Shown: piece after piece, positions 23,684-52,860 of the stretch
How the letters are laid out: each line of letters starts with the position of its first letter
How positions within the stretch are numbered: the stretch's first letter is position 1
Virus record (IMG/VR): IMGVR_UViG_3300037631_006232
Span: 32,001-96,000 of that record
Direction: 5' to 3' (one strand)
Source: a virus
Taxonomy: Duplodnaviria; Caudoviricetes
Length of the DNA stretch: 64,000 nt
The notes under the pieces: model-generated
What the model was told of the DNA's origin: nothing
Databases searched by the model: none
The model's input: only the letters and a program-made list of their open reading frames with translations
Program-made: the position numbers and the translations under genes

Positions 23684-24175
23684 TTAGCAGTTAGCAGTTT
23701 GCCGTTTATCTAGTTCACTAGTAAATTCCTTACTAGGTATTGTAGGACTAACAGAGAAGTCTATCTTAGTCAAGCTCTTAATACTTGCTGTAATAATTCT
23801 TTTTGACCCTCGGTTTTTTTTGGTCTGGATACTTTCCAGAACCCTAGCTAGAGCCTCTATCTGAGGCACTAATTCATTGCGTAGTTCCATTGTATATAGT
23901 TGTACAGGACTATCTGGTAACGTAAATAACAAGGTATAGTTGTCTTCACAGTGATTTAATTCGCCTCGAAGAAAATTGAACTTGCAGTCTAAGCAGTTAC
24001 CGTGCATGCTACCAACCTGTAGGTCCTTGGAGTAGCATCCACTATCTAGATGGGACCTATTCCTAGTTATGTCTAGTATGACAAGGCTAATCTCCTTTCC
24101 GAGATACTTACTGTCTTGGTAGAATCCCAAACTCCTTGAAAGAGGTTGAGCAATGGATAGTGATTTTATAGACAT
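23684..24175 (-). CDS. hypothetical Cys-containing protein in the replication cluster
   Basis: 163 aa, CYSKD..G...GNCLDC...C. Confidence 0.6.
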   Translation of the reverse strand: MSIKSLSIAQPLSRSLGFYQDSKYLGKEISLVILDITRNRSHLDSGCYSKDLQVGSMHGNCLDCKFNFLRGELNHCEDNYTLLFTLPDSPVQLYTMELRNELVPQIEALARVLESIQTKKNRGSKRIITASIKSLTKIDFSVSPTIPSKEFTSELDKRQTANC

Positions 24176-24821
24176 CTATTATAATGATCTTTCTCGAGTT
24201 ACTATACTCGATAAAGTGGAAGAGAAGAAATTACTACTTGCGTATAATGAGCCTAGCACCTCCGAGGAGGTAAAGCACTCTATAAAATGTAAAGTAATTG
24301 AATCTAACCTTAGACTTGTATTTGGTATGGCTAAAGGTATGTGGGATAAGAAAGATCCTGATAAACTTCAGGAGCTTATCGCCAACGGTAACCTAGGTCT
24401 AATACAAGCCTTGGGTAAGTTTGATCCTTCCTACGGGGTTAGATTCTGTACTTACGCAGGACATTGGGTATTGATGAGCATGCGCAAAACATTCCTGTCT
24501 GTAGTAAAAACCCCTTTAGACCGTTCACAGCCAGTATACGAAGAAGAATCCTATGCTCCTGAAGAACCTTATCTAGTTGATTATGATCAGGGGATACAAG
24601 AATTACAAAGAACCGCTTACATAAACTTATGGCTAAGATTTCTTAGCGACAGGGAACGGTTCATTATTAGAGAAAGTTTTCTAAGGCCCGATCATACAAC
24701 TCGCAGTCTAAGGGAGATGGCTCAGGATTTAAAACTATCTTCTGAGAGGGTTAGGCAACTAAAAGCTACAGCTATAGCAAAGCTTAGTCTGTGGTTGAGT
24801 TACCATTACTCAGAGTCTTAA
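24153..24821 (+). CDS. sigma-70 family RNA polymerase sigma factor
   Basis: ESNLRLV, ELIANGNLGLIQALGKFDPSYGVRFCTYAGHWV (region 2), LSDRERFII..SLREMAQDLKLSSERVRQLKATAIAKL (region 4). Confidence 0.93.
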   Translation: MDSDFIDIYYNDLSRVTILDKVEEKKLLLAYNEPSTSEEVKHSIKCKVIESNLRLVFGMAKGMWDKKDPDKLQELIANGNLGLIQALGKFDPSYGVRFCTYAGHWVLMSMRKTFLSVVKTPLDRSQPVYEEESYAPEEPYLVDYDQGIQELQRTAYINLWLRFLSDRERFIIRESFLRPDHTTRSLREMAQDLKLSSERVRQLKATAIAKLSLWLSYHYSES

Positions 24822-25969
24822 GACTCTGATTGCCCTAGGATGATATCTTCTAAGCTGTTATTATCGTCTGGAGTGATAACCCATTGGAGTACTTTGATGG
24901 CTACTCCAAGATCCATGCTGGCGTTTATAGAGAGATCATCATCCTCGTCAGCTCCTAACGCCACTCTAGTGGTCGAGATATCTGAGATTACCTCTAATAT
25001 AGCCTCAGCGCTGCGCACTGGTTTCCTAATTACTTTAGGTTTTGCTGTAGCTGTAGCGGCAGTAGGAGTCTTAGGCGTCCGTTTTTTGCGGTCCTGAGCT
25101 TTTATACCCTCTCCTCCTGCGTCTACTGATTCTTGATGTTTAGCATCAATGATCTCTTTTACTTCGCTGGTAGAAGGCTTAGCCTCTTCGTCTCTACCTT
25201 TGGCCACTTCTAGAATCTCTGCACGAGCAGAAGAATCCTTCACATTAGATAATAGCTTCCCAACTGAGAATCCTATTTCCTGGTTATCCACAGCGGCGAT
25301 AACCTCAGGCATCTCGTCTTCTTTAGACAGTAGGGCTAGGCGAGCGTTGATAGTGTTCTCCGCTAGGCCGAATTGCTTACACAATTCAGACATAGGGGTC
25401 CCACCCTCTAGTTGAGCCTGGATCTGTCTAGCCATCTCAATAGGAGACCAGTTCAATCGTTGGGTGTTACGGATGAGAGCATCCTGACCCATTTCTAGCA
25501 TTACTTGCTTACGCACATACTCTCGGCATTGCTCTTGTAGTTCATCACTAGCGTCTGCGTTAAGCGAATGCCAGTCGCCGAAGATATCTTCTACGATGTT
25601 CATTACACTAGGACGTACTTCGCACTTGAGCTTAGATAGAGCCTTGCCGTTAGCTGTCGCTGTTTCGCCTTCTGCGATTAGTAGGGAAACAATGTAGCAC
25701 CGACGGTTACCTTCTAGAACTCTATAGTTTTCACCGTCATCAGTTTCCATGACGATGGGAGATTCTAGCACGCCCTTACTAAGCACGCTCTGCCTCATAC
25801 TTGAGATTTGAGCGTCATCTCCATAGTACTCTCTAGACTGAAGAATATCAGTGTCTCCAGGAGATTTGAAGATAAGTTTGGAGAAATCAATTAGCTTATA
25901 GCTGGATCTAACAGCCGAGCTGTCGACCGTTGGGAAGTTATCTTGCATGTTTACCTCTGCATTTATCAA
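24818..25969 (-). CDS. ParB/Spo0J-like protein
   Basis: SVLSKGVLESPIV, YRVLEGNRR (GxRR box), NTQRLNWSPIEMAR followed by an HTH. Confidence 0.85.
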   Translation of the reverse strand: MINAEVNMQDNFPTVDSSAVRSSYKLIDFSKLIFKSPGDTDILQSREYYGDDAQISSMRQSVLSKGVLESPIVMETDDGENYRVLEGNRRCYIVSLLIAEGETATANGKALSKLKCEVRPSVMNIVEDIFGDWHSLNADASDELQEQCREYVRKQVMLEMGQDALIRNTQRLNWSPIEMARQIQAQLEGGTPMSELCKQFGLAENTINARLALLSKEDEMPEVIAAVDNQEIGFSVGKLLSNVKDSSARAEILEVAKGRDEEAKPSTSEVKEIIDAKHQESVDAGGEGIKAQDRKKRTPKTPTAATATAKPKVIRKPVRSAEAILEVISDISTTRVALGADEDDDLSINASMDLGVAIKVLQWVITPDDNNSLEDIILGQSES

Positions 25970-26702: not shown

Positions 26703-28580
26703 TTAAATTCTACACACATTAAGTGCAGTTTTTGAAATATCACTATTACTCACCACACATCCGGTGTCAAAAGGTTTTATGTTTTTATCTAGGCAATCTA
26801 ATACATGTGGACACGTTACACACTCTATTTGTTTACTCATAAGAGTGCTTACGTTTATCTTGCTATCTAGCAGTCGCATTATGTTATGGTTAACGCTATT
26901 CCTCATAACCACTACTTGTACAAGTAGTTTTTTAAACCCCTTAGCACGAATACCATAGTTACGATCTAGGCTTTGTAACCAGTGATCTAGAGACCAGCTA
27001 ACTTCAGCGTATATCATAGTAGGGGCTTTAAAAGTAACTCCTATACCCATAGATATTTGCGCTACTATTATAGCACTATCGCAAGTATTGAAATCCTCTT
27101 CTACCTCTGAATGGTTTTTAGTAGTAGAATCGTAGCGCAAAGTTTTACCTAACTTAGAGCATTTATTAAATAATTCCTGTATAACCCATTGATGTTTACC
27201 CCACACGATAATCTTTTTAGTTCCTGACGCTAAGTGCGATTGCACTAACTCAAGTACAGCGTCTAGGACAACAGTATTACCTACTTCACCGATTAATCGC
27301 CCAGGGTCTTTAGAAACAACAGAACAGGCTGTTGTGTAAGGCTGGATACCTGCGTCCACACATTGCTGAACTAACGGGCAGGTGTCACATATCTTAGGGT
27401 CTTTCTGAGACTTGTAGCAGAATCCCATACTTAACTGAGCTAACCTAGTCATTGCTGTTAAATGGTTATCAGGAACTTCTAGCGAAACAGCCCCTACCTC
27501 TATACTACTCAAAGCCACAGTAGCGTTATACAGCTTTCTAGCTTTAGAGTCGGGGCTAATTTCTATTACTTGTATAGTCCTATCGGGTAGATCTAGGCAC
27601 TCTTCAGCTGTTTTACGAATACTCATCGAAGTTACTAGCTCGTTAACCTCATCTATATTTTTCCAACCTGTTATAATGTGCTTATTAAAAGCGCTACGTA
27701 TAGCATGCCTATTTTGAAACTGCCAAGACCCAGGTACCACGAAGTCGCCCAAAGCTTTTAGCTGCCCCCACAGGTGCATCGGAGAGCCTAGCGAAGGAGT
27801 GCCACTCAGTAGTACCCTACGAGTAACAGGCTTAGCCTCTACTAGCTCTAAAACCCCCTTAGTACGTCCTGATCTAGGAGATCTTAAGGAGTGAGATTCG
27901 TCTAGTATTACGTCCGTGTAAGGTACTATTTGCTTAAGCAAGTCCTTAGCTACTCTACAAGTGTCGTAGGTTACTACGATACCACAGGTTTTAGAATCTT
28001 CTAAAGCAGCTAGAATCTTCTTTCTCCTAGTTTTACCTGTAACAACTATAGGCTCTAAGTTCCATTCTCCTTGGGAGTGGAACTGCATTTCTTTCTTCCA
28101 GGTAAACTGATTTACCTTTAAGGCTACTATTAGCCAAAAAGATCTAGGTCGTTGCTTTTTAGTATACATTATTAAATCACAGCCTATTTTAGTTTTTCCT
28201 AGTCCTGGATCTAAGAACAGGCCTAACCTCGGCATGTGTATAGCTAAGGAAAGGCTCTCTACTTGGTGATCATAGGGTTTTATTTTAGGTACAAAAGTAT
28301 CCGTATCCCCTTCTTGGATGCGGTCTACAGATTCTTTGAGTTCCTGCTCTAGTTCGATAACTTTTTTGCTAAGTTCGAAATTAGCTATGTTAGCGTACTC
28401 TCTAATATCTTCTAGTACATATAGTCCAAAAGGTAGGTAGCCGGGAGCAAACCAAATGTTTTTCTTGGAATGCTTGCTCATACCGTATACACTCCTGAGA
28501 ACTGCTACCTCAGCAGGCTTTACGTCAGTAATATATATGACTGGTAATCCCGAACTAGCTAATGTTGTGTTAACCTTCAT
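26703..28580 (-). CDS. SNF2-family (SF2) helicase
   Basis: PYDHQ, DPGLGKT, ILDESH, LSGTP, QSLDRNY. Cys-rich insertions. GGAGG RBS. Confidence 0.92.
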   Translation of the reverse strand: MKVNTTLASSGLPVIYITDVKPAEVAVLRSVYGMSKHSKKNIWFAPGYLPFGLYVLEDIREYANIANFELSKKVIELEQELKESVDRIQEGDTDTFVPKIKPYDHQVESLSLAIHMPRLGLFLDPGLGKTKIGCDLIMYTKKQRPRSFWLIVALKVNQFTWKKEMQFHSQGEWNLEPIVVTGKTRRKKILAALEDSKTCGIVVTYDTCRVAKDLLKQIVPYTDVILDESHSLRSPRSGRTKGVLELVEAKPVTRRVLLSGTPSLGSPMHLWGQLKALGDFVVPGSWQFQNRHAIRSAFNKHIITGWKNIDEVNELVTSMSIRKTAEECLDLPDRTIQVIEISPDSKARKLYNATVALSSIEVGAVSLEVPDNHLTAMTRLAQLSMGFCYKSQKDPKICDTCPLVQQCVDAGIQPYTTACSVVSKDPGRLIGEVGNTVVLDAVLELVQSHLASGTKKIIVWGKHQWVIQELFNKCSKLGKTLRYDSTTKNHSEVEEDFNTCDSAIIVAQISMGIGVTFKAPTMIYAEVSWSLDHWLQSLDRNYGIRAKGFKKLLVQVVVMRNSVNHNIMRLLDSKINVSTLMSKQIECVTCPHVLDCLDKNIKPFDTGCVVSNSDISKTALNVCRI

Positions 28581-28619: not shown

Positions 28620-28631
28620 TACTTATACCAT
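28620..28631 (-). promoter_or_regulatory. extended -10-like promoter for the replication operon
   Basis: ATGGTATAAGTA about 40 nt upstream of the helicase start. Same 12-mer at 15919-15930. Confidence 0.6.
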
Positions 28632-28647
28632 ATAACCTTTAATTTTT

Positions 28648-30387
28648 ATGGAGCTTTTTATGCTAGGAGATCTACCCAATATGACCTCTCCCGGGAAGAA
28701 TGGGACCTACTCAGATCCTATGCGACTGTGGGCCCACTCTTTCTCTCCTAGAAATCTAAAACAGCTTTTTAGATGGACTGAGTACCTATACTACAACTCT
28801 GCCCAAATATTTGCTGGAGTAAGAAAATATGCCGAGTACCCTATTACAGAAATAGAGTACCTAACTGATAGTGATAAACTCACAAGCTTATATAGGAGAC
28901 TACTGGAGGAAACTGTAGGTATAAAACAAGCTTTAATAAAAAGTTCTATCGATCTGCAAGTTTACGGAAACTCTTTTACTTCTGTACATTTACCTTTCAA
29001 GAGAAGCCTTAGATGTGGTAAGTGCAATTTTACGGAAAAAGCTACTGAAGTGGAATTTAAATACAACCCACACAAGGCTATATTTAAGCATACTTGTTCC
29101 GATTGTGGTCATGTAGGCGAGTCCAAGGTGGTTGATAAACTAGAGCTGTCTCCTGAAAAAATAAATATTGTTAGATGGGACCCTAAGCTTATACAGATTA
29201 ACTATAATACTGTTACCAGTGAAAGTGAGTATTTTTTAAGTGTGCCAAGCACTATGAAATCTAAGGTAACCTCAGGTGACCGGCATTTAATACTCACACT
29301 TCCTATGGCTATATTAGACACTATTGCTAGCGGAGATCTATTTAAATTTAATAAGTCCGAGCTTATGCATCTAAAGTCTCACGCACCTGCGGGGGTTGAG
29401 AGCGGGTGGGGGTATCCACCTTTGGTAGCATGCATGCCTCTTTTCTACCACGCTAGTGTATTAAGAAAAGCTAATGAAGCTATAGCTCTAGAGAGAATAG
29501 TCCCTATGAGAGTTATGCACCCTCAAGCAATAAGCGGTAATGCTGATCCTATACTTAGCTTATCTATGAGCAAATTTATGGGGGAGGTAGAAGACAACCT
29601 CAAAAAATGGAGGAGAGACCCCAACCATATCATGATGAGCCCTGTAGCTATCGGAGTATCTCAAGTAGGTGGGGAAGGTCGTGCTCTTATGGTTAACGCA
29701 GAGATACAACAAGCGGAGGATAACATAATAAACGCTATGGGATTTCCTAAGGAGTTTGTATACGGAGGGCTTAGTTATACAGGTAGTAGCGTTACTCTAC
29801 GTATGTTAGAAAACCAATTAGAGTCTTCCGTATTTCAAATAAACAAATTACTTACTTGGTTAACTAATAAGATGGGAGGCTACCTAGGTTGGGAGAAATG
29901 TAAGGTTAAGCTTGGGGATTTTAGGATGATAGACGATGTGCAACAGAAGCAGCTAGTAATGCAGCTATTTCAAATGGGTATGGTCTCTAAGACCACGATG
30001 GCAGAGGCTCATGGTATAAATATACAAGATGAGCGAGATAAGATAAAGCAGGAGAACCTAACCGACGCTAGATTCCAAAAAGAGTTGGAACTTGATATGA
30101 TGGACCTTCAAAAAGACCTTAGCCAACAAGCTAGGCAGATGTCGGCCCAACAGCAAGGTGCGGGAGGTTTATCTTACGACCAGCAGGCTGTAATATCTGA
30201 AGCAGAGAACTTAGCTATGCAGTTACTACAAACAGACCCAAGTACCCGAAAATCTCAACTGGCTAGTTTACAGTCGGAAGATTATGTGATGTACTCAGTA
30301 GTAATCCAACGTATGGAGCAATTACAACTCGACCAAAAGAATCAAGCTATGCAACAAGCTATGGGTGGCGGCCAGCCCCCTATGTAG
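28648..30387 (+). CDS. portal protein (probable)
   Basis: 579 aa, first gene of the head region. DLQVYGNSF, ELMHLK..GWGYP, IINAMGFPKEF, Zn-ribbon insert, Gln/Met-rich tail. Confidence 0.75.
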   Translation: MELFMLGDLPNMTSPGKNGTYSDPMRLWAHSFSPRNLKQLFRWTEYLYYNSAQIFAGVRKYAEYPITEIEYLTDSDKLTSLYRRLLEETVGIKQALIKSSIDLQVYGNSFTSVHLPFKRSLRCGKCNFTEKATEVEFKYNPHKAIFKHTCSDCGHVGESKVVDKLELSPEKINIVRWDPKLIQINYNTVTSESEYFLSVPSTMKSKVTSGDRHLILTLPMAILDTIASGDLFKFNKSELMHLKSHAPAGVESGWGYPPLVACMPLFYHASVLRKANEAIALERIVPMRVMHPQAISGNADPILSLSMSKFMGEVEDNLKKWRRDPNHIMMSPVAIGVSQVGGEGRALMVNAEIQQAEDNIINAMGFPKEFVYGGLSYTGSSVTLRMLENQLESSVFQINKLLTWLTNKMGGYLGWEKCKVKLGDFRMIDDVQQKQLVMQLFQMGMVSKTTMAEAHGINIQDERDKIKQENLTDARFQKELELDMMDLQKDLSQQARQMSAQQQGAGGLSYDQQAVISEAENLAMQLLQTDPSTRKSQLASLQSEDYVMYSVVIQRMEQLQLDQKNQAMQQAMGGGQPPM

Positions 30388-31329: not shown

Positions 31330-32554
31330 GATTTTGGTCTATGGTTGGTAGATCCAGAAATCTTTTAAAAGATTTCAGAGTTGAGAATTCCTCTAATTTA
31401 GGTAGTTTCTCCGTGAAAGATATACCCATAGATGTCTCGTGGTAGCCAAAGTTACCTGAGAATAGGGTGGCTAGGTTCTCATCTTGTAGTTTCGTGTCTA
31501 CAAGCTTTCTAATCATCGGGCGGGAAATATCCTTAAGGTTGTTATTTACAATGATATCTACTAGTACGCTATAAATTTCAATACCTACCGATTTGTACAC
31601 AGTAGACATCGTTTCAGTAGTTGCATCTTTCCTCATTAGGGAAAGAAATAAGGAGTCTACATCTGAGGTATCTCCTACTGCTTCGGCGTAGTTGAGACAT
31701 ATCTTGTCCCAGGTTTCTGTGTAGTCGGCTTTTGAGGAGATCCACTCCTGTTCGAGTCGGAGTTGTAGTTCGGCTTTTTCTCTTTCTCTTTCTGCTCTTA
31801 CGGGAGCCATGAAAGCCTCCGTAAGGGCCTCTTTCTCTTTCTGCTCCGCAGCTACTCGGGCTACATCTGCAGCTTCCTTAATACGAGCCGCCTTCTCGTC
31901 CGAACTTTCGGATAGCAGCTTCTCGTATTTCCAGCTAGTGAGACCAGTGACCGCTTGGTACAGTGACACTGTACCGCGGATAGCACCACGTACTTTTACT
32001 TTTACGAAACTCGTCGTTAAGATACTGCCCAGAAAAGTAGGGGAATAAATAGGATCTGAGCCCGTACCTTCCAAGGTAAGCTTATCACCTTCTTCTATAA
32101 AGCCGAAGAAGTCTCTGGCTGATTTCTGTTTATCAGCTGAGATAGCGGAGGCTTTTACTTTTCTAAAACTTACGGGTAGTATAGGCAAGGAGGTGTCCGT
32201 ACGCTCTCGTGTGTGTAAGATCATACCTACGGTTTCTCTCAGGAATACATCCCGCATCTCAAACGTCTCTCGCTTACTAATAGGAGCAGATGCTAGGATT
32301 TCTAACATCAGGTTCTCTAGGTCTAATCTATTCTGGTGACCTTTAATAGAGGCTTCCGATAGTTCTAGCACGGGGTTGTCTAGGTGCTTATTCGCATATA
32401 GTAGATCTGCAAATAACGGGTAGTTTCGGTAGGTCTCTGCAAACTCAGTTTTAGGTGAGTCGCTTTGAAACTTACGGGGCAATTCTAGTTGCGGGTTTTG
32501 AGCCTCGCTGGGCTTTCTATTTCTTTTTGCCATGACAAACTCCTTCATAGGCAA
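31274..32554 (-). CDS. hypothetical protein with central coiled coil, probably early
   Basis: 426 aa, E/K/R/A-rich middle. True start probably MAKRNR after AAGGAG. Confidence 0.7.
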   Translation of the reverse strand: MPMKEFVMAKRNRKPSEAQNPQLELPRKFQSDSPKTEFAETYRNYPLFADLLYANKHLDNPVLELSEASIKGHQNRLDLENLMLEILASAPISKRETFEMRDVFLRETVGMILHTRERTDTSLPILPVSFRKVKASAISADKQKSARDFFGFIEEGDKLTLEGTGSDPIYSPTFLGSILTTSFVKVKVRGAIRGTVSLYQAVTGLTSWKYEKLLSESSDEKAARIKEAADVARVAAEQKEKEALTEAFMAPVRAEREREKAELQLRLEQEWISSKADYTETWDKICLNYAEAVGDTSDVDSLFLSLMRKDATTETMSTVYKSVGIEIYSVLVDIIVNNNLKDISRPMIRKLVDTKLQDENLATLFSGNFGYHETSMGISFTEKLPKLEEFSTLKSFKRFLDLPTIDQNLEEVIHLKSQLQVPLHSC

Positions 32555-32623
32555 GTAAAGGGGAGTGTAACCCCATATCTAGCGCTACCACACAGACCTT
32601 GAAATCAGGGTGTGTAGTGCATA

Positions 32624-32635
32624 TACTTATGACAC
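32624..32635 (-). promoter_or_regulatory. variant of the minus-strand promoter motif
   Basis: GTGTCATAAGTA (TG-n-CATAAG-TA), followed by a leader hairpin at 32582-32620. Confidence 0.45.
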
Positions 32636-32663
32636 ATACAGAGTAAATTTTGTGAGTTTTACT

Positions 32664-35600
32664 ATGGCAAAAAGTACAAGATATCTTAATGCTTCTCCTG
32701 AGGAGAGGCAGAGACAGCTGCGTCAAAAAACCCTAGAAGGTGTGCAGAGTTTATTTCCTATAATAGGAACTCACCATACCATAGAAGCGGACAATTTTGA
32801 GGTTCAAGAAAAAGAAGTTAACTATAGTGATCATAAAAAAGCTTTGTTTAAAGGAGGGTCTATATATGAGCCTATAAAGGCTACGGTTGTTATAAAAGAC
32901 AAAGCCGGTAATGTCGTATCTAAGAGGAACAAACATACGGTTATGCACCTGCCTAGAGTGACTCATCATAATACTTTTATAGTCAACGGTAACGAGTACG
33001 CACTTAAACACCAGCTTAGAACCAAGCCTGGGGTGTATACTAGAAGAAGAGGTAGTGAAGAATTAGAATCTAGCTTTAACCTGGCTAAAGGAGCTAACTT
33101 TAGGTTAAGCCTAAATCCTACTAGAGGCGGCCTTCAGATGGAGTACGGAAGCTCTAAAATTCCTATGTACCCTATACTAAAACAAATGGGTATTAGCGAT
33201 ACTGACATGTCAAAATATTGGGGCAAAGACCTAGTGCAGCGCAATAGGGACTTGTATGGTAAAACCTCCGATAAAGCAGTAGCTAAGCTTTTTTCTAAAA
33301 TAGTGCCTAAGTCGGAACAGTCCTTATACGAGAGTGTACAGGATAAATCACAAGCTATATTGAGAGCTTACGAAAACACTATCTTAGATCCAGAGACTAC
33401 TAAAACAACCTTAAAAAAATCTTTTGATAAAGTAACCCCAGAGGCCTTGTTAGTAGCTAGCAAGAAGCTTGTATCTGTGTATAATGATGAAGATTCAGAG
33501 GACGAGCGAGATAGCTTACAGTTTCAAAAGGTTGTAGGTCCCGAGGACATATTTAAAGAACGTTTGGAGTTGAAGGCTAGGGAACTTAAGTGGAAAATTA
33601 AGAATAAGTTAGACCTTAGTCCGAATGTTAGCGTTGCTAAAGTAATGCCTAGTACTTCGACTAATGGGGAACTTAAAAAGTTTTTGAGTACGGCCCAACT
33701 AGCTAGCTTACCTTCTCAAATAAACCCTGTAGAAATGCTGGATAGCTCCCTAGCGGTAACTCGCTTAGGGGAAGGTGGTATATCTAACGAAAGAGCAGTT
33801 CCTGCTTCTGCTCGTAAATTACACTCATCTACATTAGGTATTATAGATCCTTTTAGGACACCAGAATCAGGTAATGTCGGAATAGATCAAAGATTTACTT
33901 TAGGTGCTCGGAGGGACGATGCGGGAAATCTATACGCCTCTATGGTAGATGCTAAAACAGGAAAGGCGGTAGCCATAGCTGCTAAAGATATGGCCAACAA
34001 AGTTATAGCCTTCCCAAATCAAGACACCAAAACTGGTAGTGTAGACGCCATGATACGAGGTAAAGTAGGTAAAGTAAAACCCAGAGAGGTTGACTATCTT
34101 ATAGCCAATGCTCCTAAGATGTACACTACTAATACTAATCTAGTGCCTCTGCTTGATAGTACTCAAGGTAATAGAATTATTATGGGTTCAAAAATGGTAG
34201 GGCAAGCTATGCCTTTAGTTAATAGAGAGAAACCTCTAGTAATGAGTTCTTTTGTTAGCGACGGGGATGATGAGTCTAAATCTATAGAAAGGGTTGTAGG
34301 CTTATCTACAACTCCCGGAGTTGGGGCAGAAGACGATGGGGTCGTTGAAGAGGTTTCAGACACCCATATAAAAATTAAATACAAGACTAAGGGAGACGTA
34401 TCCTACGAGATACCCAAAAATATGCCTTTAGCCTCCAAGACTTTCTTAGACGGGGTGGTTAGGGCTAAAAAAGGGGACCGTGTTAAAGTAGGAGATACTT
34501 TAATGGATACTAACTTTACTAAAGACGGTACCTTAGCTTTAGGTCGTAATTTAAAAGTAGGTTATTTAGCCTACCACGGTTTAAATTCAAACGACGCAGT
34601 AGTTATGAGCAAGCAAGCCACAGAGAAAATGGCTTCTATAAACATGACTAAATTTGTAATAGAGACTGATAGAGATACTTTGATAGATAGGAATAAGCAC
34701 TCTGCAAACTTCCCCAGACAATTTACTAAAGACCAGTACTCTAAGATGGATAAGGGAGTTATACAGGTAGGGCAGAAACTCAGGTCAGGAGATCCTATAG
34801 CGGCAGTTCTTAGAAAAAAAACACCCAGTATAGAGAACCAAATACTAGGTAAAATACATAAATCTCTTAGGCAGGAGTACTCTGACGCCGCAGAGACTTG
34901 GGATAAAGAATCCGAAGGAGAAGTAGTGGCCGTAGAAAAAGAGGGTAAAAGAACTACTGTTGTAGTTCGGAGTGTTGAGAAATTAAAAATAGGGGACAAG
35001 GTAAGTAATAGGTATGGAGGTAAAGGGGTTATTAGTAAGATAATACCTGATGAGGATATGGTGCAAGATGAGTCGGGTAAACCTATAGATATACTCTGGA
35101 GCTCTTTAGGGGTTGTTAGCCGTATCAATCCTTCGCAAGTAATTGAAACTGCCGCCGCAAAAGTTGCTGAGAAGATGGGTAGATCTATTGCTATACCTTC
35201 TTTTAAAAAACGTAATAATGTTGAGTGGGTGCGAGGCTTGATGAAAAAGCATGGGGTAAAAGATAAGGAGACTGTGTTTGACCCTATAACAGGTAAAAAG
35301 ATACCCAACATAATGGTAGGGCCTCAGTACACCTATAAGTTATTTAAAAGTTCAGACACTAACTATGCCGCTAGAGGCCTTAATGGAGGGTATGACATTA
35401 ATGAGCTGCCTAGTAAAGGAGGGGTTACAGGAGCAAAGGGCACTGGTATAATGGAAATCAATGCTCTTCTAGCGCATGATGCTAGAGATATTATTAAAGA
35501 AAATGCTATTATTAAAGGCACTCGCAATACTGAGTTTTGGAGAGCCTTCCAACTAGGCAGGCCCTTGCCTCCTCCCAAGTCTAGCTTCGCATTTGATAAG

Positions 35601-37025
35601 TTTAAAGGTATGCTTGCAGGGGCTGGTATACGGTTTAAAAAGGAAGGGAATCATATGTCGTTGGTGCCTATGACAGATTCTGAAGTTAGAGGCATGTCTA
35701 ATGGGGAAATAGAGAATGGGAGAATGGTTTTGGCTAAGAATTTAAAAAGTGAAAAAGGAGGGCTATTTGATATAGGTAAAACAGGAGGTATAGTAGGTAC
35801 TAAGTGGACGCATGTAGAACTGCCCGAGCCTATAGTTAACCCCTTATTTAAAGACGCTAGTAGGCGATTACTAGGGCTGACAGATAAACAACTAGATGAG
35901 CAGACCTTTTCTAAAGGTGGGGATTTTGTTAAAAAAGAGCTCAACTCTATAGATATAGATTCCCGATTAACCTCCCTTAAGAAAGCACTGCCTACTTCTA
36001 AAGGTGCTGATAAAGATAATGCTTATAAGCAGATAAAGGCTCTAAATGCTTTAAAAACTAACAATATTAAACCCGGTGATGCTTATACTATGAAAGCTTT
36101 CCCGGTGCTACCTCCAAAACTAAGACCCGTAGTTCCTGGTGCTAAAGGCGATCTTTTGATATCCGATGTTAATCATGTATACAAAGATCTTATACTAGCC
36201 AAGCAAAAGCTTAAAGAAGCCCAAGATCTAGGCTTACCAGATGAAGATGTTGCTAGTATGCGTAAGCATGTTTCTGAAGCTGCAGGAGCTGTTATTGGTA
36301 CTAGAGAACCTGTGTCTTCAAAGCTGGCGGCTAAGCAGGTTAAAGGTCTTGTTAATACTATTACAGGTACTAAAACAGGCTTCTTTAATGGTAAAGTTTT
36401 AGCTAGGAGACTAGACTTTACAGGTAGAGGTACAGCTGCACCGGACCCTAGCCTAGGTATGGATGAGGTGGGTCTTCCAGAATCTATGATGTGGGATATG
36501 TACGCTCCTTTCGTTATGAAAAACTTATCCAGAGGAGGGTACTCTGCCCTACAGGCTAAAAAAATGGTGGAAGATAAATCAAGTCGAGCTAGAGAAGAGC
36601 TTATGATAGAATCTAACAGACGTCCTGTTATACTTAATAGAGCACCTTCTTTACACAGATTTAATGTTATTGCTTTTAAGCCCAAACCAGTTAGCGGTAC
36701 TACTATACAAGTTAACCCTTTTATGGAGGATGGTATGAACTTAGATTATGATGGAGACGCTCTACAAGTACATGTCCCTGTTACTGACGGAGCGGTCACT
36801 GATGCTAAAAAACTGTACCTATCTAATAATGTACTAGGCGATAGAAATAGAGGCACTTTACTAGCTTACCCTAAGCAGGAAGCTATGGCAGGTATTTTTA
36901 AAGCTACTTCAGCTAGTAAATCCTCAGGCCCTATTAAAAAATTTAAAACAAGTAAAGAAGCTATGTCTGCTTACCGGCGGGGAGACGTTTCTAGTACAGA
37001 CATGGTGGAGATAGAAGATGACTAG
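32664..37025 (+). CDS. multisubunit RNA polymerase chain 1: beta fused to the N-terminal/catalytic half of beta'
   Basis: Beta motifs FIVNGNE, RLGEGGIS, DPFRTPESGNVG, NRIIMGSKMVGQAMPL, GDKVSNRYGGKGVIS, SRIN, GPQYTYKL. Beta' motifs HVELPEP, PVLPPKLRP, RRLDFTGR, LNRAPSLHR, NLDYDGD. ATG at 32664 (track start 32610 is GTG). Confidence 0.95.
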   Translation: MAKSTRYLNASPEERQRQLRQKTLEGVQSLFPIIGTHHTIEADNFEVQEKEVNYSDHKKALFKGGSIYEPIKATVVIKDKAGNVVSKRNKHTVMHLPRVTHHNTFIVNGNEYALKHQLRTKPGVYTRRRGSEELESSFNLAKGANFRLSLNPTRGGLQMEYGSSKIPMYPILKQMGISDTDMSKYWGKDLVQRNRDLYGKTSDKAVAKLFSKIVPKSEQSLYESVQDKSQAILRAYENTILDPETTKTTLKKSFDKVTPEALLVASKKLVSVYNDEDSEDERDSLQFQKVVGPEDIFKERLELKARELKWKIKNKLDLSPNVSVAKVMPSTSTNGELKKFLSTAQLASLPSQINPVEMLDSSLAVTRLGEGGISNERAVPASARKLHSSTLGIIDPFRTPESGNVGIDQRFTLGARRDDAGNLYASMVDAKTGKAVAIAAKDMANKVIAFPNQDTKTGSVDAMIRGKVGKVKPREVDYLIANAPKMYTTNTNLVPLLDSTQGNRIIMGSKMVGQAMPLVNREKPLVMSSFVSDGDDESKSIERVVGLSTTPGVGAEDDGVVEEVSDTHIKIKYKTKGDVSYEIPKNMPLASKTFLDGVVRAKKGDRVKVGDTLMDTNFTKDGTLALGRNLKVGYLAYHGLNSNDAVVMSKQATEKMASINMTKFVIETDRDTLIDRNKHSANFPRQFTKDQYSKMDKGVIQVGQKLRSGDPIAAVLRKKTPSIENQILGKIHKSLRQEYSDAAETWDKESEGEVVAVEKEGKRTTVVVRSVEKLKIGDKVSNRYGGKGVISKIIPDEDMVQDESGKPIDILWSSLGVVSRINPSQVIETAAAKVAEKMGRSIAIPSFKKRNNVEWVRGLMKKHGVKDKETVFDPITGKKIPNIMVGPQYTYKLFKSSDTNYAARGLNGGYDINELPSKGGVTGAKGTGIMEINALLAHDARDIIKENAIIKGTRNTEFWRAFQLGRPLPPPKSSFAFDKFKGMLAGAGIRFKKEGNHMSLVPMTDSEVRGMSNGEIENGRMVLAKNLKSEKGGLFDIGKTGGIVGTKWTHVELPEPIVNPLFKDASRRLLGLTDKQLDEQTFSKGGDFVKKELNSIDIDSRLTSLKKALPTSKGADKDNAYKQIKALNALKTNNIKPGDAYTMKAFPVLPPKLRPVVPGAKGDLLISDVNHVYKDLILAKQKLKEAQDLGLPDEDVASMRKHVSEAAGAVIGTREPVSSKLAAKQVKGLVNTITGTKTGFFNGKVLARRLDFTGRGTAAPDPSLGMDEVGLPESMMWDMYAPFVMKNLSRGGYSALQAKKMVEDKSSRAREELMIESNRRPVILNRAPSLHRFNVIAFKPKPVSGTTIQVNPFMEDGMNLDYDGDALQVHVPVTDGAVTDAKKLYLSNNVLGDRNRGTLLAYPKQEAMAGIFKATSASKSSGPIKKFKTSKEAMSAYRRGDVSSTDMVEIEDD

Positions 37026-37266
37026 AATGCAGTTAGCCTATATTGCCGGAGTCAAATTAGCTTATGCTGTTAAGTTGTCTGACGAAAGCCCTGATGTTAT
37101 CAAATCAGAAGAACAATTACGTTCTCTTTTAAAAATTATAGGCGGGGATTCTCCTAAAAGCTCTCCTAATAAAGTAGTTATTAACTCTGAAGATAAGCAA
37201 TCTAAGGCCTCTTGGGGAGATAAAATTGAGCTAGAAGCAGGTAGCTCTACCGGCATAGAGGTTTAG
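37018..37266 (+). CDS. small head-cluster protein
   Basis: N-terminal AYIAGVKLA motif shared with neighbours. Confidence 0.65.
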   Translation: MTRMQLAYIAGVKLAYAVKLSDESPDVIKSEEQLRSLLKIIGGDSPKSSPNKVVINSEDKQSKASWGDKIELEAGSSTGIEV

Positions 37267-37272
37267 AAGAAT

Positions 37273-38118
37273 ATGGATTCTAATGATATTACGAAGGCTT
37301 ACGAAGCAGGTAAGCAACTAGCTTACGAAGGTAGAGAGAAGAGTGCTTTCTTATCCTCAGTTTTAAAAGGCGGAAAGTTCTTATTTACTGGAGGGCACTT
37401 AGGCAAGCCAGGGTCTCTTATATCTAAATTAAGCCCACATCATATAGGGGCTCCTTTAGGAGGGGGTGCTATGGGGGCTTACTTTGCTGAAGACGGTGAA
37501 AAATCTAAAGGGTTTATTAAAGGTTTTGCCGGAGGTCTTTTATTCAATGCTGCTATGCCTCTAGGTTCTAGTATAGGTAAAAGGATACTGGCCCCCGGGT
37601 TCTCTGGAGCAGGGTCTGCTAAGATAATGAAAGGTATTGGTTTCTCCGATGAGGCTACCGCAGCTATGAAAGCTTCTCAGAATATAAATAAGGCTCTTAA
37701 TACTAGACAAGGAGTATTTAGAGGAGTTACAGAACGTGCCTTATCCTCCGGTAATTTCAAAGGCTCAGCCAAACTAACCCAATCTATAGATGATGTATTA
37801 AAAAATCAGGGTAAAATGTTACCTGATGCTGTAAAAACTAGGCTAACTAACTTACAATCCCAACTATCAGCGGGCTTATCTCCAACCAACCAGAAAAAAT
37901 TCCTTGAAGAATTGCAAGATGTAAGCAGCACCTTGTACCGAACTGGTTATGCTACAGGTACTAAAGGACAGCAGTTTGCCCTTAAAGGTACTAGATTCGC
38001 AAAAGGAGTAGGCATGATAGGTGGTGGTATGGGGTTAGGTATGGCTTTAACAGGGCCTATGGAAAGATCTTTGGACTCTACTCCCTCTTCTTACTTTAAC
38101 TCTACGGGAGGACACTAA
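37273..38118 (+). CDS. Gly-rich, glycine-zipper-like putative internal virion/ejection protein
   Basis: AYEAGKQLA..EKSAF leader, then GxxxG-rich hydrophobic segments (GAPLGGGAMGA, GVGMIGGGMGLG). Confidence 0.55.
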   Translation: MDSNDITKAYEAGKQLAYEGREKSAFLSSVLKGGKFLFTGGHLGKPGSLISKLSPHHIGAPLGGGAMGAYFAEDGEKSKGFIKGFAGGLLFNAAMPLGSSIGKRILAPGFSGAGSAKIMKGIGFSDEATAAMKASQNINKALNTRQGVFRGVTERALSSGNFKGSAKLTQSIDDVLKNQGKMLPDAVKTRLTNLQSQLSAGLSPTNQKKFLEELQDVSSTLYRTGYATGTKGQQFALKGTRFAKGVGMIGGGMGLGMALTGPMERSLDSTPSSYFNSTGGH

Positions 38119-39893
38119 TGGTCCGTGGTAAATTTGCCGATGTCATTTTAAATAATTCTTTGCCCAAGGACTACAGGATAGAAGGGGAGATGGATACTAA
38201 AAAGTTAAAAGCAAGTATGTTACGTATGGCTAAAACTAGCCCAGAAACTTATAAGGTAGTTATCCCTAAGATTAAAAAATTAGGGGACGAGTTTTCTACC
38301 TTCGAAGGTATTTCTGTAGGGCTAGAAGATATAGAGCCGGAGTATAGTAAAAGAAATCCTATACTAAATAACGCCAAACGAAAATTACGTATGGTAGGTA
38401 CAGATGCTAAAAAGAAAATGGCTATATTACTTGATACCCAATCTAAATTGCGGGATATAACAACTAACCACCCTGGGGATATGGGTATGATGGCTAGATC
38501 AGGTAGTAGGGGTAATATGAATCAACTAATGAAAATGGTAGCTAGCCCAGGGATTGTAGGAGATTGGGACGGTGCCCCTATACCTTTCTTAATAGAGAGG
38601 GGGTACTCTGAAGGCTTGTCTCCAGCAGAAGCTTGGATAGCCGGAGATGAGAGTAGGGCTCAAGTTATTAAGGGTCAGTTAGGTACTGCAGAACCCGGGG
38701 AGATGCAGAAAGTTTTGGCATCAGTGATGACTGAAGAAGTGATTGCTTCTAATGATTGCGGTACCAGTAATGGAATATTACTGGAAGCGTCGGACCCTTC
38801 AGTAGAAGGTAGGTACCTAACCACGGGGTCTTTAGCTACGGCTTCTGTAGCCGCTACTCTAGCAAGGAAAGGTAATAAAGTTAGGGTACGCTCTCCTATG
38901 ACGTGCGAATTAGACTCAGGGGTTTGTCAAAAATGTATGGGAACAAGTAACTCCGGTAAGAACTACTCAATAGGGATTAATGTAGGTATACGCTCCGCAC
39001 AAACGCTAAGCGAACCTCTAACCCAAATGGCTCTTAGCGCTAAACACGGGGTGTCTTTAGTAGAAGGTGATCATAAAACTCCTAAAGGGTTAGCTGCCTT
39101 CAAGCAATTTGTGGAAGTCCCTAAAAACTTTTTTCAAAGAGCTCCAGTATCCGATATTGATGGGAGGGTGGAGTCTGTCGCTAAAGCACCTCAAGGAGGG
39201 TTTGATTTAGTCATTGAAGGCTCCCAGCATTACATACCTCCTAATAGAGATTTAAAAATAAAAGTGGGATCTAAAGTGCGTGCGGGAGATGTGTTAGCTT
39301 CAGGTATACCCGCTCCGGATGATGTTATTAAATATAAAGGTCTGGGTGCTGGTAGAGATTACTTAATGAAATCTCTTAGAAAGGTTTACTCTGAGTCAGG
39401 TAAAGAAGTTGATCCTAGACACTTGGAGTTATTAGCTAAGTCTCAATTAAACTATGTACGAATAGATGGAGGCTCCAAAGAATTCTTACCAAACGATATA
39501 GTATCCATTTCTAAAATTAGGAGTTCATTTAAAGATAAAGGGCAGGCAGTACCTTTAAACCAAAGTGTAGGCAAAGTGCTAACTAAGTCTGTAGGAGCTC
39601 ACCTACCGGGCACTAAAATAACTTCCGTAGTTAGGGATGAGTTAGGAAAAGAGGGCGTAGGTACCGTCTATGCTGTTGATTCTAATATAAAAATCACACC
39701 TATAATGGCCGCCGCTACCAGAACACCCTTACTAAACCCTAATTGGATGCAACGTCTAGGTTACAGATACCAAAAACAAACCCTTATAAACGCCGCGACT
39801 TTTGGAGAAAAGTCGGATTTGCACAGCCATAACCCCGTACCCGCTCTAGCTGTAGGTAGTGAGCTTAGAAGAGATGCGAAAGGTAGATACTAA
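38118..39893 (+). CDS. multisubunit RNA polymerase chain 2: C-terminal half of beta'
   Basis: MARSGSRGN, YSEGLS, bridge helix TAEPGEMQKVL, DCGT, VRSPMTC..GVCQKCMG, trigger loop AQTLSEPLTQMALSAKH, RHLELL. Confidence 0.95.
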   Translation: MVRGKFADVILNNSLPKDYRIEGEMDTKKLKASMLRMAKTSPETYKVVIPKIKKLGDEFSTFEGISVGLEDIEPEYSKRNPILNNAKRKLRMVGTDAKKKMAILLDTQSKLRDITTNHPGDMGMMARSGSRGNMNQLMKMVASPGIVGDWDGAPIPFLIERGYSEGLSPAEAWIAGDESRAQVIKGQLGTAEPGEMQKVLASVMTEEVIASNDCGTSNGILLEASDPSVEGRYLTTGSLATASVAATLARKGNKVRVRSPMTCELDSGVCQKCMGTSNSGKNYSIGINVGIRSAQTLSEPLTQMALSAKHGVSLVEGDHKTPKGLAAFKQFVEVPKNFFQRAPVSDIDGRVESVAKAPQGGFDLVIEGSQHYIPPNRDLKIKVGSKVRAGDVLASGIPAPDDVIKYKGLGAGRDYLMKSLRKVYSESGKEVDPRHLELLAKSQLNYVRIDGGSKEFLPNDIVSISKIRSSFKDKGQAVPLNQSVGKVLTKSVGAHLPGTKITSVVRDELGKEGVGTVYAVDSNIKITPIMAAATRTPLLNPNWMQRLGYRYQKQTLINAATFGEKSDLHSHNPVPALAVGSELRRDAKGRY

Positions 39894-51711: not shown

Positions 51712-52860
51712 ATGAATACAGAGCGTGAGCGCCTAAGTGCGCAGTTTATTAATCAAAGCTTTGTCCGTAAATTGGACGAAGGACGAGTAAAAGAAGCAGC
51801 TGACGAAGGTAGTCGGTTCATTAGATCAAAGCTACGCCAAGAAAGCTTTGCACGAGAAATCTTGCAACCTATTGAGCTTAGCCCAGACGAGATCGATCGT
51901 GACGAGCACACAGATCAACCTAAGAAAATCATCGAAAAAGAGCCTGATTCAACAGCTACTTTCGTAACTTTCAAAGGATCTGGACAACGTACTTTCTTCC
52001 GTGGACCTCGTTACTCAGTATTCTTCGGAAAAGTTGAATCACAACATTTCATGAAGAGCAAGTTCGAACTTCTTACTTACCAAAACGACATCCGCAAAAT
52101 CTTAACTGACAACTCAGTTAAAGATATGGCTGACGTAGAAGATCAAAAGTTCATTGAAACTATTGAAGCTGCTTTAGATGATGCAGGATCTACTTTAGAT
52201 AAACGCTCCAGTGACGGAGCTGCTTCTATTGATGGTGATAATGTAACCTCTTTTGGCGGAGTAGAGTTCTTACCTCTTGCAGATTCAGCAGTAGGTGCAA
52301 ATCTAACTGGTAATCTAGGAGCAACTCAGTTTACTGGAGAACAACTTCTCAATGGTAACAACTTTGTGGCTAGGGCTGCAGAACGTGATGCTGGAGGAGC
52401 TACTGAAATTAGTGGTTCTAAGTTCGATCTTGGAGCACAAGCACCTCTTAGCAAAGAACTTATCGCACAGTTGTTCCAAGCTATGACTGCTAAGAAACTT
52501 CCTATCGGTAAAATGCTTATGAGCAAGACTACCTTCATGGAAGCTCTTAAATTTGACTATAACGATGTTGGTAACGACATTGTTTCTCGTCACTATGACA
52601 ACGGTCTTGAAGGCGAAGATAAGCTCTTTGGTGTACCTGTAATTACTACTATCAAGAATGACATTATTCCTGATAACGTAATCTACTTGTTTGCTCCTGA
52701 GAACTACCTCGGTAACTTCTTCCTTCTACAAGACGCTACTCTATTCATTAAGCAAGAAGCTGATATGATTGAGTTCTGGTCTTACTCTTCTCCTGGAATT
52801 GGTATTGGTAACACTAAAGGTGTTATTAAACTTTCTGGATTTAAGAGCGTAGGCGCTTAA
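51712..52860 (+). CDS. major capsid protein
   Basis: 382 aa, follows protease/scaffold/decoration genes, codon usage typical of a highly expressed gene, AAGGAG RBS, downstream terminator. LFGVPVITT fits an HK97-like fold. Confidence 0.8.
   Translation: MNTERERLSAQFINQSFVRKLDEGRVKEAADEGSRFIRSKLRQESFAREILQPIELSPDEIDRDEHTDQPKKIIEKEPDSTATFVTFKGSGQRTFFRGPRYSVFFGKVESQHFMKSKFELLTYQNDIRKILTDNSVKDMADVEDQKFIETIEAALDDAGSTLDKRSSDGAASIDGDNVTSFGGVEFLPLADSAVGANLTGNLGATQFTGEQLLNGNNFVARAAERDAGGATEISGSKFDLGAQAPLSKELIAQLFQAMTAKKLPIGKMLMSKTTFMEALKFDYNDVGNDIVSRHYDNGLEGEDKLFGVPVITTIKNDIIPDNVIYLFAPENYLGNFFLLQDATLFIKQEADMIEFWSYSSPGIGIGNTKGVIKLSGFKSVGA

Follow-up and report, generated by a model that had tools for sequence, protein, structure and literature searches.

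We analyzed a stretch of 64,000 nucleotides (positions 32,001 to 96,000 of IMG/VR record IMGVR_UViG_3300037631_006232; here, the window) from an uncultured tailed phage, whose source record is ∼147 kb long and 87% complete. Two plus-strand genes of the window, at 32664-37025 and 38118-39893, encode a bacterial-type multisubunit RNA polymerase (RNAP) on two chains, of which chain 1 is a fusion of β with the N-terminal part of β′ (β::β′N) and chain 2 is the separate remainder of β′ (β′C). This layout, including the positions of both genes, had been put forward in an original prediction made from the DNA letters without database searches, and it was confirmed. We consider it likely that the two genes form the catalytic core of a phage-borne polymerase that would use σ factors, be independent of α and ω, and be packaged in the virion. 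The original prediction also held that chain 1 runs from β straight into β′ and ends ∼90 amino acids past the catalytic motif NLDYDGD, that the bridge helix and trigger loop lie on chain 2, that the window has no α or ω gene, and that the enzyme is of bacterial type and sits among head genes. The distance past the motif measured 88 amino acids, and the other points were borne out by the alignments, structure models, profile searches, and gene order described here. It mentioned neither the two open reading frames (ORFs) between the chains (orf82 and orf281), nor two σ-like genes, the loss of the β′ zinc-binding domain, or the unsplit relatives, and was incomplete to that extent.

The ORF of chain 1 spans 32610-37025, and its likeliest start is the ATG at 32664 (MAKSTRY...); residue numbers counted from the GTG at 32610 are 18 higher than those counted from this ATG. 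The Pfam models Rpb2_3, Rpb2_6 (5e-45), Rpb1_1, and Rpb1_2 (2e-20) all hit this one chain, the PHROGs assignments agree with Pfam for the polymerase chains, and solved bacterial β chains match residues ∼94 to 1010 and β′ chains residues ∼1089 to 1468 (numbered from the GTG). A model of residues 254 to 1453 built with AlphaFold2 (AF2), with a predicted local distance difference test score (pLDDT) of 78, matches bacterial β in Foldseek at an E value of 3e-45. For a map of the anatomy, a profile of 16 family members was aligned to rpoB and rpoC of Salmonella, whose numbering is that of E. coli. On this map, chain 1 keeps β segments 54-222, 422-933, 1049-1131, and 1177-1297, without the SI1 and SI2 insertions, up to residue ∼990, and continues from ∼992 with β′ 21-63, a deletion of ∼75 residues, and β′ 178-551. 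The AF2 model has two adjacent strands at the junction (pLDDT ∼76 to 91). Sequence identity to bacterial β and β′ is 25 to 33%.

The catalytic elements of both double-psi barrels are present in chain 1. At residue 777, GDKVSNRYGGKG aligns to E. coli β 1063-1074 (GDKMAGRHGNKG) and carries the two lysines of the GDK...GxKG pattern, and NLDYDGD holds the DxDGD metal-binding triad of the β′ barrel. The β lysines, the three aspartates, and the glycine of the triad motif are invariant among relatives. Chain 1 is devoid of cysteine, and the four-cysteine N-terminal zinc-binding domain of β′ is missing with the ∼75 deleted residues. In the equivalent of rifampicin-pocket cluster I, the E. coli β residues Q513, D516, H526, and S531, which are established resistance positions, correspond to serine, serine, serine, and threonine; because these positions are substituted, the polymerase is predicted to be insensitive to rifampicin.

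Chain 2 supplies the rest of β′, namely, the funnel, bridge helix, second zinc site, trigger loop, and C-terminal part of the clamp. It is hit by Rpb1_4 and Rpb1_5, matches solved bacterial β′ chains at an E value of 1e-43, and yields an AF2 model (pLDDT 81) that matches bacterial β′ in Foldseek at 3e-28. Chain 2 has no cysteines other than the four of the second zinc site, which are invariant across all 55 sequences compared. In one relative (L077:15125-18376), chain 2 has grown to 1,083 amino acids through an extra C-terminal segment. The features of the window are collected in Table 1.

TABLE 1 Polymerase genes, their mapped elements, and other features of the window (aa, amino acids)
Feature	Position	Strand	Remarks
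Chain 1 (β::β′N)	32664-37025	+	1,453 aa; slimmed complete β fused head-to-tail to E. coli β′ ∼20-552
Rifampicin-pocket cluster I equivalent	33687-33779	+	Profile alignment
Flap-tip helix equivalent, ENQILGKIHKSLRQ	34833-34874	+	Alignment to E. coli β ∼891-912; predicted docking site of σ region 4
β double-psi barrel motif, GDKVSNRYGGKG	34992-35027	+	Two catalytic lysines
Fusion junction, GIRFKKEGN/HMSLVPMTD	35625-35678	+	End of β directly into β′ residue ∼20
Former β′ zinc-binding domain	35757-35843	+	E. coli C70/C72/C85/C88; short Gly-rich loop instead
β′ clamp helices (coiled coil)	36168-36299	+	Within alignment to E. coli β′ 178-551; predicted docking site of σ region 2
Catalytic motif NLDYDGD	36738-36758	+	Residues 1359-1365; 88 residues remain after motif
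orf82	37018-37266	+	82 aa; ATG overlaps stop of chain 1; close relatives only
orf281	37273-38118	+	281 aa, Gly-rich; stop overlaps start of chain 2 (TAATG); 17 related loci
Chain 2 (β′C)	38118-39893	+	591 aa; E. coli β′ ∼572 to ∼1333+, without SI3 insertion
Bridge helix	38613-38729	+	Alignments; AF2 helices 169-204
Second zinc site	38754-38936	+	C214, C263, C270, C273
Trigger loop	38973-39050	+	Invariant His310; alignments and AF2
σ70 family factor	24153-24821	+	222 aa; regions 2 and 4
Portal protein	28648-30387	+	Upstream of chain 1; orthology to Arash
σ70-like promoter match, TTGAAA-17-TATACT	32599-32627	+	In 110-nt gap before chain 1
Major capsid protein	51712-52860	+	38 to 44% identical to Arash gp226; downstream of chain 2

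The enzyme belongs to a large family. Chain 1 has matches in at least 584 protein clusters; among the matches listed, at least 120 clusters are 42 to 100% identical to it, nearly all of them ∼1,450 amino acids long and with both Rpb2 and Rpb1 domains. The architecture is shared by at least these 120 clusters and by 80 retrieved loci. IMG/VR holds 344 loci of the family, and we compared 82 related loci. In 79 of these, the portal gene precedes chain 1, and chain 2 was found in 65, always downstream and on the same strand; the gap between the chains is 0.6 to 5.7 kb in 64 of the 65, while the last, L085, reads chain 2 in the frame of chain 1. The catalytic motif is NLDYDGD in 41 of 76 relatives, NADYDGD in 25, and NADFDGD in 2, next to other variants, and wherever the motif was checked, chain 1 ends ∼85 to 95 residues past it. 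Cultured members are limited to Salmonella phage Arash, with gp206 and gp216 as the two chains, and to Vibrio phages D69, D148, and D181; the motif is AADYDGD in Arash and D69, and a megablast search of the locus against cultured phages gave no match. In ∼25 chain 1 proteins of the family (∼1,600 to 1,740 amino acids), the β part contains an inserted domain for inorganic pyrophosphatase (PF18823, InPase in Pfam; E values of 2e-30 to 3e-51; in one also PF00719), e.g., at residues 597-718 of P0058 and ∼616-840 of P0064, and a polymerase with a built-in pyrophosphatase would clear its own by-product.

Some relatives are not split. In L085 (9989-16348 of a 163-kb contig), a single ORF of 2,119 amino acids contains all Rpb2 and Rpb1 domains and the motif NADFDGD, L092:5890-12198 has a single ORF of 2,102 amino acids, and further single chains of 2,000 to 2,500 amino acids with NADFDGD or NADYDGD occur in L101, L102, L106, L107, L116, and L117. 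Phage contigs mis-binned in metagenome-assembled genomes (MAGs) are a source of such single chains, as well as of extra split forms. Lineage contigs of 100 to 200 kb (L098 to L118) are binned as Acidimicrobiaceae, Gemmatimonadaceae, Anaerolineales, Dependentiae, Aenigmatarchaeota, and others, probably by mis-binning, and the RNAP genes of such contigs could pass for cellular markers. A high-GC relative (L091:5965-12327) has its polymerase as 815 plus 1,302 amino acids, broken within β rather than β′, which may reflect a frameshift or a further natural split.

The original prediction had called for a phylogeny against cellular and phage enzymes. A quick tree under LG+G4, with 44 sequences (1,439 columns) of which 13 are bacterial, puts every fused phage enzyme on the same side of the bacterial ones (Shimodaira-Hasegawa-like approximate likelihood ratio test [SH-aLRT] value of 100). 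The single-chain forms are basal, and the split forms lie in one clade (SH-aLRT of 99) together with one long-branch single chain, L117; a single origin of the split is not rejected by the approximately unbiased test (P = 0.45). Because the unsplit forms branch below the split ones, the β::β′ fusion is probably ancestral in this phage lineage and the break past the barrel later. As for the origin of such breaks, the chain 1 gene of D181 and D148, intact in D69, is broken by an insert of ∼950 bp that encodes a homing endonuclease, so that chain 1 is left in pieces of 514 and 1,006 amino acids (D181, L178 3465-8979), and chain 1 of some other relatives (P0048, P0098, and P0101) contains inteins or LAGLIDADG domains. 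Since these elements interrupt chain 1 of relatives, mobile elements are a plausible cause.

The break lies in a loop at about E. coli β′ 552/572, and the two chain ends are separated by a loop of ∼18 residues. The unsplit L085 spans both ends with a short loop alone, and since the profile map aided by this sequence leaves nothing more than that loop, no β′ segment is missing at the break. The RpoC2 N termini of cyanobacteria align to chain 2 residues ∼10 to 17, placing the break within ∼10 to 30 residues of the one between rpoC1 and rpoC2; cyanobacterial γ, sought for a comparison of the C terminus, was not among the matches listed for chain 1. In the phiKZ-type enzymes, the β′ break reportedly falls where the cyanobacterial one does (Sokolova review, PMC7598289), so that the statement in the original prediction that these enzymes are split differently is wrong for β′ and right only for their extra splits in β.

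The existence of unsplit relatives and the inteins or LAGLIDADG domains in chain 1 of others might suggest that split-intein trans-splicing or translational bypass restores a single β::β′ protein from the two chains. We regard this as highly improbable, given that the chain ends are flush with β′ ∼552 and ∼572, which leaves no space for intein halves and rules out a split intein, that 1.1 kb with two good ORFs separates the chains, and that mass spectrometry (MS) of Arash (PMC10585845) gives two separate proteins. The least credible of the alternatives is that the split is an assembly or sequencing artifact or that the gene is decaying: the break is shared among the related loci with a chain 2 (n = 65, with L085 in frame) and two cultured genome groups, and the active-site residues are invariant. 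This conservation of both break point and active site already refutes it.

On the plus strand, the ORFs at 32610-37025, 37018-37266, 37273-38118, and 38118-39893 are tightly packed. Stop and start codons overlap from chain 1 through orf82, orf281, and chain 2 to the next gene, and because of these overlaps the five genes are expected to be coexpressed; they would form one translationally coupled operon inside the head-gene block. Coupling to both chains is also what might speak for orf82 and/or orf281 being extra polymerase subunits that replace α or ω. This seems very unlikely, since in a clustering of the gap proteins from 66 loci, orf82 was found in 9 loci and orf281 in 17, in close relatives only, whereas genes of a LigD-like repair type (primase-polymerase/phosphoesterase/ligase) occupy the slot of 19 loci, a family without assigned function is found in 23, and unrelated families occur elsewhere. 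The slot is empty in unsplit forms, and the gaps of Arash and D69 hold other genes, with no orf82 or orf281 homologue in either phage. No gap family is universal, and this variable content rules out the gap ORFs as conserved subunits; judged by these sequence comparisons, the gap is a variable cargo slot.

A missing piece of β′ was also ruled out, with no BLAST match of orf82 or orf281 to Salmonella β′, and Pfam and PHROG searches with orf82 gave no match. Each of the two proteins starts with a short helix that has a LAY motif ahead of Lys-x-Ala-like sites, and both may belong to a set of leader-tagged, possibly capsid-targeted proteins. The LigD-like slot genes encode a primase-polymerase and a 3′-phosphoesterase, with or without an ATP ligase (L024:14341-15924, L022:13040-15061, and L033:14326-15759), and such a gene directly follows the single-chain gene in L085; it is an odd companion for a polymerase within a head-gene block.

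No α (PF01000, PF01193, and PF03118) or ω (PF01192) gene was found with these models in the 147-kb record, while the same searches hit 13 to 14 of 14 control genomes. PF01000 and PF01192 are likewise absent from Arash, D69, the L085 genome, and two 100%-complete relatives, four of these five being complete genomes. The α2ββ′ω set that defines the bacterial core enzyme is therefore not encoded alongside the two chains as far as these models reach. A second polymerase set was also sought in the genome; there is a single set, which rules out a phiKZ-like two-set arrangement.

The σ70 family factor of the window (Table 1) likely partners the polymerase, as judged from sequence, and the elements predicted to dock σ, the clamp helices and the flap tip, are alignable in chain 1. 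A second σ-like gene lies outside the window (24751-25452 of the genome); its product scores above the Pfam cutoff for region 3 and is orthologous to the Arash virion protein Gp10 (33.5% identity, E value of 4e-27). A σ70-like promoter match precedes chain 1, and such matches are no more numerous in the region than in shuffled sequences; in the window, TGnTATAAG has five matches, at chance level, all on the minus strand and none before the polymerase operon, and CTATVAG matches are also at chance level. One site, TGGTATAAG at 28622-28630 (minus strand), lies immediately ahead of the helicase gene at 26703-28580, also on the minus strand, within a gap of 67 nt, a position that fits a promoter for a nonstructural gene.

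The polymerase genes sit between the portal gene starting at 28648 and the major capsid gene starting at 51712, together with homologues of three proteins that MS of Arash had reannotated as structural, all on the plus strand. The major capsid protein has no Pfam hit and an insertion of ∼70 amino acids relative to that of Arash. According to the Arash paper (PMC10585845), Gp206, the orthologue of chain 1, is the most-detected protein of the particles (3,516 spectra), Gp216 is present with 1,210 spectra, and the σ factor Gp10 was detected in purified particles with 100% coverage. By analogy with these orthologues, which are 34% identical, virion packaging of the polymerase, which the original prediction had proposed from its place among the head proteins, is suggested.

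The alternative that we weighed most is that the phage provides the large catalytic chains only, borrows α2 (and ω) from the host, and makes the enzyme after infection rather than carrying it as a true virion component. All cellular enzymes known require α for assembly, the β-β′ fusions of Helicobacter retain it, and a σ70-like promoter match stands ahead of chain 1. The Arash virion list is also very inclusive (PMC10585845). We nevertheless consider this alternative unlikely, given that polymerases of the PhiKZ/AR9 type are active without α or ω (PMC7598289), that the hosts of the lineage are very different (Salmonella, Vibrio, and marine bacteria), that the genes lie in the head block beside the portal gene in 79 of 82 loci, and that Gp206 heads the list of Arash particle proteins.

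Several points weigh against an α/ω-independent, packaged, σ-dependent enzyme. A divergent substitute for α or ω, or the use of the host subunits, is possible, since their absence rests on Pfam models and, for the source record, on a sequence that is 87% complete. The host polymerase could express the operon, because a σ70-like promoter match precedes chain 1. In Arash, 116 of 272 proteins are called structural, ribonucleotide reductases among them, and its authors allow for carryover of abundant infection proteins (PMC10585845). The tree is provisional, with bacterial sequences from few groups and long branches, and single-chain L117 falls inside the split clade. For this phage itself, the reading is built on sequence and structure models.

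As a working model, chain 1 and chain 2 would associate noncovalently, like γ and β′ of cyanobacteria, into a core for which α and ω would be dispensable and which would bind phage-encoded σ70 family factors. The core and one σ would be loaded into the capsid and injected, and the enzyme would then transcribe phage genes independently of the host polymerase. In its full form, i.e., a minimal core freed of α and ω by the β-β′ tether, with a phage σ70 family factor copackaged in the capsid and injected, this model is tentative, and we hold it to be somewhat less probable than its negation.

Comparison with known systems shows what is shared and what is not. In Helicobacter and Wolbachia, the C terminus of β is fused head-to-tail to the N terminus of β′, but these fusions, ordinary cellular enzymes of ∼2,900 amino acids, are unsplit and keep α and ω; among phage enzymes, the unsplit L085 and L092 are closer to that form than the enzyme of the window is. 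The original prediction proposed that having both barrels on one chain may make α unnecessary; the Helicobacter fusions retain α, and the phiKZ-type enzymes lack it without being fused. In cyanobacteria and plastids, RpoC1 (γ) and RpoC2 (β′) are separated past the catalytic barrel, as here, but those enzymes have β as a separate subunit together with α and ω, retain the zinc-binding domain, and carry a large insertion in RpoC2. The polymerases of PhiKZ and AR9 resemble the present one in being phage encoded, in lacking α and ω, and in a β′ split past the catalytic barrel, and one of their sets is packaged in the virion (PMC7598289 and PMC7824862). They differ in that β is split too, that there are two paralogous sets, no σ, and a phage-specific fifth subunit, and that they are far more diverged, whereas here β is intact and fused, the set is single, and σ genes are present.

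The closest match is the type found in Arash (Gp206 plus Gp216; OQ632216) and in D69, D148, and D181, which has the same two-chain layout, with β plus β′N followed downstream on the same strand by chain 2 and with the portal gene upstream. Alignments cover 98% of chain 1 at 34% identity, chain 2 is 31 to 32% identical, chain 1 ends 87 to 90 amino acids past DxDGD, the four cysteines of chain 2 are the same, α and ω were not found, and σ genes are present; the differences are the motif (AADYDGD versus NLDYDGD) and the genes in the gap. The Arash paper, in the part consulted, labels the genes simply β and β′ and describes neither a fusion nor a lack of α (PMC10585845).

The mReC enzymes (Weinheimer and Aylward 2020, PMC7481178) are also from uncultured tailed phages and have β and β′ alignable to cellular enzymes. 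They form a clade apart from cells, were filtered for matches with NADxDGD and at least 800 amino acids, have no fusion or split described for them, and come with capsid proteins that match Pfam Gp23 (PMC7481178). The present phage has NLDYDGD, a chain 2 of 591 amino acids, and no hit of Pfam Gp23 (PF07068) in its genome or to its capsid protein, and none of nine tested contig identifiers is listed as mReC in the supplement of PMC7481178. The motif NADYDGD of 25 of the 76 relatives is compatible with the mReC filter, and an overlap of mReC with this lineage is possible. Finally, the crAss-like virion RNAP (phi14:2 gp66) has both barrels on one chain, as here, is packaged in the virion, and lacks α, but its sequence is not recognizably related to β and β′ (here, Pfam E values reach 1e-45), and it does not use σ.

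Each element of the present enzyme is known separately, i.e., the β-β′ fusion, the break in β′, α-less phage polymerases (phiKZ, AR9, and crAss-like), and virion polymerases (N4, phiKZ, and crAss-like). To our knowledge, all cellular multisubunit RNAPs need an α-like assembly platform, and the phage enzymes of the phiKZ/AR9 and crAss types are the sole exceptions. The combination of a fused and resplit bacterial-type polymerase with its own σ factors, without α and ω, and in a head module was not found described in searches of the PMC and bioRxiv literature, which turned up only the Arash genome paper (PMC10585845) on this architecture. The lineage is large, with hundreds of loci from several environments, and its cultured members (Arash on Salmonella Typhimurium and D69 on Vibrio) make the predictions testable at the bench. 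Its one- and two-chain states provide a natural series for asking what a minimal bacterial-type core is, whether a β-β′ tether replaces α, and why β′ is broken recurrently at one spot in cyanobacteria, plastids, and two phage lineages. If the working model is true, this would be the first σ-dependent virion RNAP and a natural minimal core of two chains (one in relatives), and an enzyme traveling in the virion with its σ would represent a new phage route to independence from the host polymerase.

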